A DNA stretch of 47,091 nucleotides, taken from assembly GCF_003334255.1 (NCBI RefSeq), contig NZ_QOWU01000042.1. The stretch is one strand, 5' to 3'. A model generated the notes under the pieces. That model worked only from the letters and a program-made list of their open reading frames with translations. It was not told the DNA's origin and did no database searches. This stretch comes from Escherichia coli (GTDB lineage: Bacteria; Pseudomonadota; Gammaproteobacteria; Enterobacterales; Enterobacteriaceae). Of the stretch, positions 44,258 to 44,392 are shown one piece after another (the stretch's first letter is position 1; every line of letters begins with the position of its first letter). The translations under genes and the position numbers were made by a program.

Positions 44258-44392
44258 TCAGAAGTCGGCTTTCAGGACCACGCGGTAGCGCGCTTTACCA
44301 TCGCGTACATGCTGGATGGCGTCGTTAATTTTCGACATCGGGAACAGTTCGCCGCCCGCTTCTTTTGCGGCATAGCTTTTTATCATCGACAT
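44258..44392 (-). pseudogene. ahr: in-frame internal-deletion remnant of aldehyde reductase Ahr/YjgB (44 codons)
   Basis: Minus-strand ORF below the track cutoff encodes [44 protein letters not shown]: the first 16 and last 28 residues of the 339-aa Ahr as recalled, joined in frame. Confidence 0.7.

Follow-up and report, generated by a model that had tools for sequence, protein, structure and literature searches.

The window analyzed here, i.e., the whole 47,091-nt stretch of an Escherichia coli genome under study, very probably carries a natural loss-of-function allele of ahr (yjgB) that arose in one commensal clone through a single spontaneous 885-bp deletion between two CGAACTG repeats. 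What is left of the gene reads as a 135-nt open reading frame, ATG to TGA, of 44 codons plus stop, in which Ahr residues 1–16 are joined in frame to the last 28 residues (312–339). The remnant is located between yjgR and leuX, with synteny as in other E. coli, and comprises or adjoins the following features:

44258..44392, minus strand: ahr (yjgB) remnant ORF, from direct reading of the window and alignment to intact ahr
44352..44392, minus strand: ahr 5′ segment, gene nt 1–41, start codon included, 100% identical to B-1109 ahr
44345..44351, minus strand: deletion junction, the sole kept copy of the 7-nt repeat CGAACTG (CAGTTCG on the plus strand), defined by the overlap of two BLAST segments
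44258..44344, minus strand: ahr 3′ segment, gene nt 934–1020, last 28 codons and stop, 100% identical to B-1109 ahr and 91.5% to K-12 ahr
44226..44247, minus strand: putative terminator-like hairpin just 3′ of the ahr stop, from a consensus scan
44393..44587, no strand assigned: ahr–leuX divergent intergenic region, 97.9% identical to K-12 across the region and identical to B-1109
44588..44672, plus strand: leuX tRNA-Leu(CAA), intact neighbor, detected with ARAGORN
42626..44128, minus strand: yjgR, HerA-like, 500 aa, intact downstream neighbor, from ORF/annotation and K-12 alignment

The extent of the loss was defined by comparison with two intact copies of the gene. Against the K-12 MG1655 reference (ahr at L005 11191–12210), BLAST returned two segments. 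Window positions 44345–44673 are 97.9% identical to a stretch that includes the 5′ end of ahr, the intergenic region, and leuX, and positions 44258–44351 are 91.5% identical to the 3′ end of ahr. These segments have 7 nt in common, with offsets 885 bp apart. The closest intact relative, found with a 17-kb query, was E. coli B-1109 (CP117971.1), which has the same leuX island as the window and encodes an intact 339-aa Ahr. Between this genome and the window, we counted 4 SNPs in the 17,352 bp leading up to the junction, followed by 2,747 identical bp, and the sole structural difference was the 885-bp deletion in ahr. Both remnant segments are 100% identical to B-1109 ahr, with an offset difference of exactly 885 bp, i.e., 295 codons, so that residues 17–311 are missing. 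The ahr–leuX intergenic region is unaffected by the deletion, and the ahr ribosome-binding site, read directly from the sequence as GAAGGA 9 nt upstream of the ATG, is kept.

In the intact B-1109 gene, CGAACTG occurs at ahr nt 42–48 and again at nt 927–933, as the only repeat pair at those positions. The junction retains exactly one of the two copies, with no inserted or foreign bases and with flanks that are 100% parent sequence. At the protein level, both breakpoints of intact Ahr fall on a Glu-Leu dipeptide (GAA CTG), E15-L16 and E310-L311. An earlier note on this DNA, made from the sequence without database searches, had proposed that the 44-codon ORF derives from ahr, that it joins residues 1–16 to the last 28 in frame with start and stop codons kept, that about 295 codons were lost, and that the junction lies within a Glu-Leu dipeptide common to both breakpoints, pointing to a microhomology-mediated deletion. 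Alignment to K-12 and B-1109 ahr bears out this reading throughout: the Ahr termini that it assumed were right, the deletion amounts to 295 codons exactly when measured against B-1109, and the microhomology, 7 nt long at the nucleotide level, is of the kind proposed, with CGAACTG at both parental ends and one copy left.

A microhomology of at least 7 nt would be expected at only 0.07% of randomly placed ahr junctions. Since the two repeats stand 885 nt apart, a multiple of three, the reading frame survives along with the start, the stop, the ribosome-binding site, and the terminator. At a length of at least 7 nt, 42 exact direct repeats exist in intact ahr, 28 of them with in-frame spacing, so that both the presence of such a repeat and the in-frame outcome are unremarkable. 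Nothing that we found favors the CGAACTG pair over the 41 other repeats. A search for extended homology around the two CGAACTG copies found none, and a search for a palindrome between their inner flanks gave a longest complementary run of 4 nt, with pairing that is weaker in duplex energy than in shuffled sequences (z = +1.4).

Taken together, we propose that one spontaneous deletion would have struck ahr in an ancestor of a single E. coli clone, a human-gut commensal that includes strains G1/2, G6/7, and G8. The event would have removed the 885 bp between the two copies of CGAACTG and left a single copy, and the allele would then have spread vertically. We infer that it most likely arose during replication, without RecA, by slipped-strand mispairing or by template switching, the best-supported process for such deletions in E. 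coli. RecA-independent deletion between short direct repeats has been documented in E. coli K-12 (PMC5426353). The ahr allele also resembles the lacI-type spontaneous deletions between short direct repeats in its 7-nt end repeats, in the single copy kept, in the absence of filler, and in a deleted tract of roughly a kilobase; lacI-type deletions are, however, laboratory-selected mutants, whereas the ahr allele has become fixed as a natural polymorphism in a commensal clone.

A different natural route, which we regard as unlikely though still deserving of some weight, would start from a double-strand break in ahr, followed by resection and rejoining at the 7-nt microhomology through alternative end-joining. 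Such a repair event would yield an identical product, with one repeat copy and no inserted bases, and E. coli does possess a RecBCD- and LigA-dependent microhomology end-joining activity. That activity is, however, very inefficient compared to slippage between direct repeats, and the sequence holds nothing that favors a break in ahr. Slippage and microhomology-guided end joining lead to the same product, and sequence alone cannot separate them. Under either route, the allele would be natural, and slippage between the CGAACTG copies is the reading that we retain.

The allele is rare among complete genomes. We found it in 3 of 5,426 complete E. coli genomes, namely G1/2, G6/7, and G8, each identical to the window (100% over 701 bp). 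All three are Symbioflor 2 probiotic strains, and the records of G1/2 and G6/7 give their source as the faeces of a healthy individual in Germany. The isolation of the Symbioflor 2 strains, from a healthy donor, dates to 1956 (PMC4358396). Beyond complete genomes, an exact-protein index placed the exact 44-aa product on 57 contigs, in 131 blocks of the assembly collection. Further carriers include the 2015 Symbioflor drafts and the NCBI assemblies GCA_025770215.1, GCA_958327045.1, and GCA_947859305.1, and the 44-aa product is also carried by two metagenome assemblies from ENA, of which one bears the label human gut. When the JGI metagenome collection was scanned for exact matches to the 45-nt junction, 0 were returned.

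The remnant and the junction are identical in all carriers compared, even though their genomic backgrounds differ. In G1/2, G6/7, and G8, a 768-bp IS1 with a 9-bp target duplication (site 45857–45865) interrupts the AbiJ-NTD4 gene; this insertion is absent from B-1109, from the window, and from several other carriers of the allele. At its other end, the window harbors a prophage-like or integrative element beside ppa (1–2958), where G6/7 has ytfP and tamB. This element encodes a 343-aa tyrosine integrase (1837–2868; PHROG integrase, E = 1.6e-65), Cro/CI-like regulators, and a phage-family protein. Because of these background differences, i.e., the IS1 and the element at 1–2958, the window's strain is not a product strain but a wild relative of the Symbioflor 2 product strains. 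The deletion itself is older than the divergence between the window's strain and the product strains. Three further carriers (L011, L012, and L014) differ from the window only by 5–7 SNPs clustered in lptG (41526–42460), which look like small recombination tracts that may have been gained after the deletion.

The identity of the junction across these carriers also bears on a technical concern, namely that ahr might be intact and merely collapsed by the assembler. Nothing speaks for such an artefact beyond the general possibility, and we give it practically no credence: the same junction is present in three closed chromosomes, in independent 2015 drafts, in other isolates, and in metagenome assemblies, and a 7-nt repeat is too short to collapse an assembly.

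Given the clean architecture of the remnant, the earlier note had asked whether the allele was natural or constructed, and had pointed to strain provenance and to a survey of other genomes as ways to decide. Both were informative. An engineered scarless in-frame deletion of ahr, e.g., for aldehyde-accumulating production strains, would have the in-frame start-plus-stop architecture that we observe, and ahr/yjgB is often targeted in engineering (PMC3439341). Against this stands the presence of the allele in the donor strains isolated in 1956, as well as in gut-metagenome and other isolate assemblies with diverged backgrounds. The year 1956 predates the existence of gene-replacement methods. The genomic background is that of a wild-type commensal, with the leuX island, IS elements, and a prophage, and the 7-nt junction microhomology, given its frequency among random junctions, likewise argues against design. 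P1 transduction from Keio strains leaves an FRT scar, which is a further point against engineering; a search of the window for FRT, an FRT arm, loxP, I-SceI, the Datsenko–Wanner P1/P2 sites, and the lambda attB core found none of these, with mismatches allowed. For the yjgB deletions described in PMC3439341, Keio-collection strains served as donors in P1 transduction.

Deletions of the Keio/Datsenko–Wanner type, or those made by scarless allelic exchange, are likewise in frame, with start and stop codons kept and neighboring genes undisturbed. The ahr remnant differs from them in having no scar, in having breakpoints that coincide with a native 7-nt repeat instead of designed positions, and in its natural provenance from 1956. 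We thus consider an engineered origin to be effectively refuted, with the chance that it applies here being extremely small, and the origin to be natural: the provenance check returned strains from 1956, independent isolate and metagenome carriers, and no scars, and the survey yielded three of the complete genomes along with other isolate and gut-metagenome assemblies. More generally, a clean in-frame start-plus-stop remnant is by itself no evidence of engineering.

We next consider what the deletion would mean for the encoded enzyme. Ahr/YjgB is an NADPH-dependent zinc aldehyde reductase of the cinnamyl-alcohol-dehydrogenase-like MDR family, and the remnant is derived from its gene at the same locus. 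In the intact protein, Pfam identifies an ADH_N domain (PF08240, GroES-like) at residues 27–140 and an ADH_zinc_N domain (PF00107, Rossmann) at residues 179–301, both wholly inside the deleted interval 17–311. According to the crystal structure, the catalytic zinc ligands are Cys41, His63, Glu64, and Cys152, and a glycine-rich NADP motif sits in the Rossmann domain (PMC7287880); these ligands and the nucleotide-binding motif all lie within the deleted residues as well. Unlike functional members of the family, the remnant therefore has neither Pfam domain, no zinc ligands, and no NADP site, and on these grounds the 44-aa product cannot act as an aldehyde reductase, and the stub is a pseudogene. 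Expression of the stub is possible, with the upstream region, the ribosome-binding site, and the terminator-like hairpin being retained.

Loss of Ahr is probably tolerated owing to redundant aldehyde reductases, with neutrality deduced from this redundancy. In the laboratory, single yjgB deletions had only marginal effects on isobutyraldehyde reduction, several enzymes having overlapping activities, and aldehyde reduction changed only once several reductases had been removed in combination (PMC3439341).

Across the species, intact ahr is the rule. K-12 ahr was matched at ≥80% coverage in 5,266 of the 5,426 complete genomes (97% intact), leaving ~160 without an intact copy: the 3 with the CGAACTG-junction allele and 157 without a megablast match to K-12 ahr. 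At the same locus, these 157 genomes carry remnants of two other kinds. The first, the UPEC132/APEC O1:K1:H7 type (6 complete genomes), keeps about the first 262 nt of ahr. The second, the SE11/401651 family (about 151 complete genomes), is frameshifted and has lost both gene termini. Such remnants were located in other E. coli genomes at the following positions of the compared loci:

L002, 1787–2014: other ahr remnant, same locus
L003, 1728–1902: other ahr remnant, same locus
L004, 1727–1962: other ahr remnant, same locus

As in the window, most of ahr is gone between yjgR and leuX in both kinds; however, the breakpoints differ, and one or both gene termini are missing or frameshifted. Remnants of the UPEC132 type and the SE11/401651 family are 79–89% identical to K-12 ahr, a level of divergence which indicates that they are much older or were imported. 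From these comparisons, ahr has been lost independently at least three times, with the CGAACTG-junction allele being the rarest form.

Recurrent loss could be taken as a sign of adaptation, either because some gut niche selects against Ahr activity or because the 44-aa product has gained a new role as a micropeptide. The number of independent losses (≥3) and the ~3% of complete genomes (about 160 of 5,426) without an intact copy are compatible with such a scenario, as is the fact that the remnant still has its promoter region, start and stop codons, ribosome-binding site, and terminator-like hairpin, yet we judge it very unlikely. Two thirds of the repeat pairs available in ahr would give an in-frame outcome, and 97% of genomes retain intact ahr. 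The other remnants are out of frame or without termini, which speaks against any need for a peptide, and the CGAACTG-junction remnant is identical in all carriers, so that there is no variation bearing on selection for the peptide. The preferred reading remains a probably tolerated deletion between short repeats, inherited within one clone.

The biological weight of the allele is small: it represents a textbook short-direct-repeat deletion that disables one of several redundant aldehyde reductases. Its main use is as a label, since the 885-bp junction constitutes a PCR-testable clonal marker for the lineage that contains Symbioflor 2 G1/2, G6/7, and G8; the IS1 insertion within AbiJ provides a second marker, one that separates the product strains from their wild relatives. 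The analysis also corrects an annotation: in G1/2 and G6/7, RefSeq records only the 3′ 93 nt of the remnant, as an incomplete "hypothetical protein" pseudogene, and this fragment can now be assigned to ahr. Searching the literature for Symbioflor in combination with yjgB yielded no papers. The ahr allele is an ordinary natural pseudogene of a well-known kind, without discussion in the searchable literature.

The surrounding locus displays several additional features. Between yjgR and the ahr stop lie 129 bp, of which 90 bp (44168–44257) have no K-12 counterpart. In K-12, the L-idonate operon idnR-idnT-idnO-idnD-idnK occupies the space between yjgR and ahr (L005 6104–11190), and it is absent from the corresponding interval of the window (44129–44257); this idn-less layout is the majority state, found in 3,212 of 5,426 complete genomes. 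An idnD–ahr fusion was considered as a source of the C-terminal 28 residues and rejected, because this segment matches the 3′ end of ahr and no idn operon exists in the lineage. Identity to K-12 falls to 91.5% at the ahr 3′ end compared to about 98% in the flanks, and this drop suggests an old haplotype boundary.

On the other side of the remnant, an intact AbiJ-NTD4 domain gene (274 aa, 45206–46030, plus strand) lies just downstream of leuX, and no integrase is found next to the tRNA in the island at this site. A hypothetical gene without a Pfam match follows (46079–46705, minus strand), and then transposase fragments onward to 47091. Like several draft contigs of related assemblies, the window stops at the edge of an IS30 copy, which suggests that its end is a short-read contig end. 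At lower coordinates, the holC–pepA spacer contains a 96-bp unit repeated 3.1 times in tandem with 92% identity (38246–38541), and measures ~350 bp in the window compared to ~160 bp in K-12; its units look like palindromic units of the REP/BIME type.
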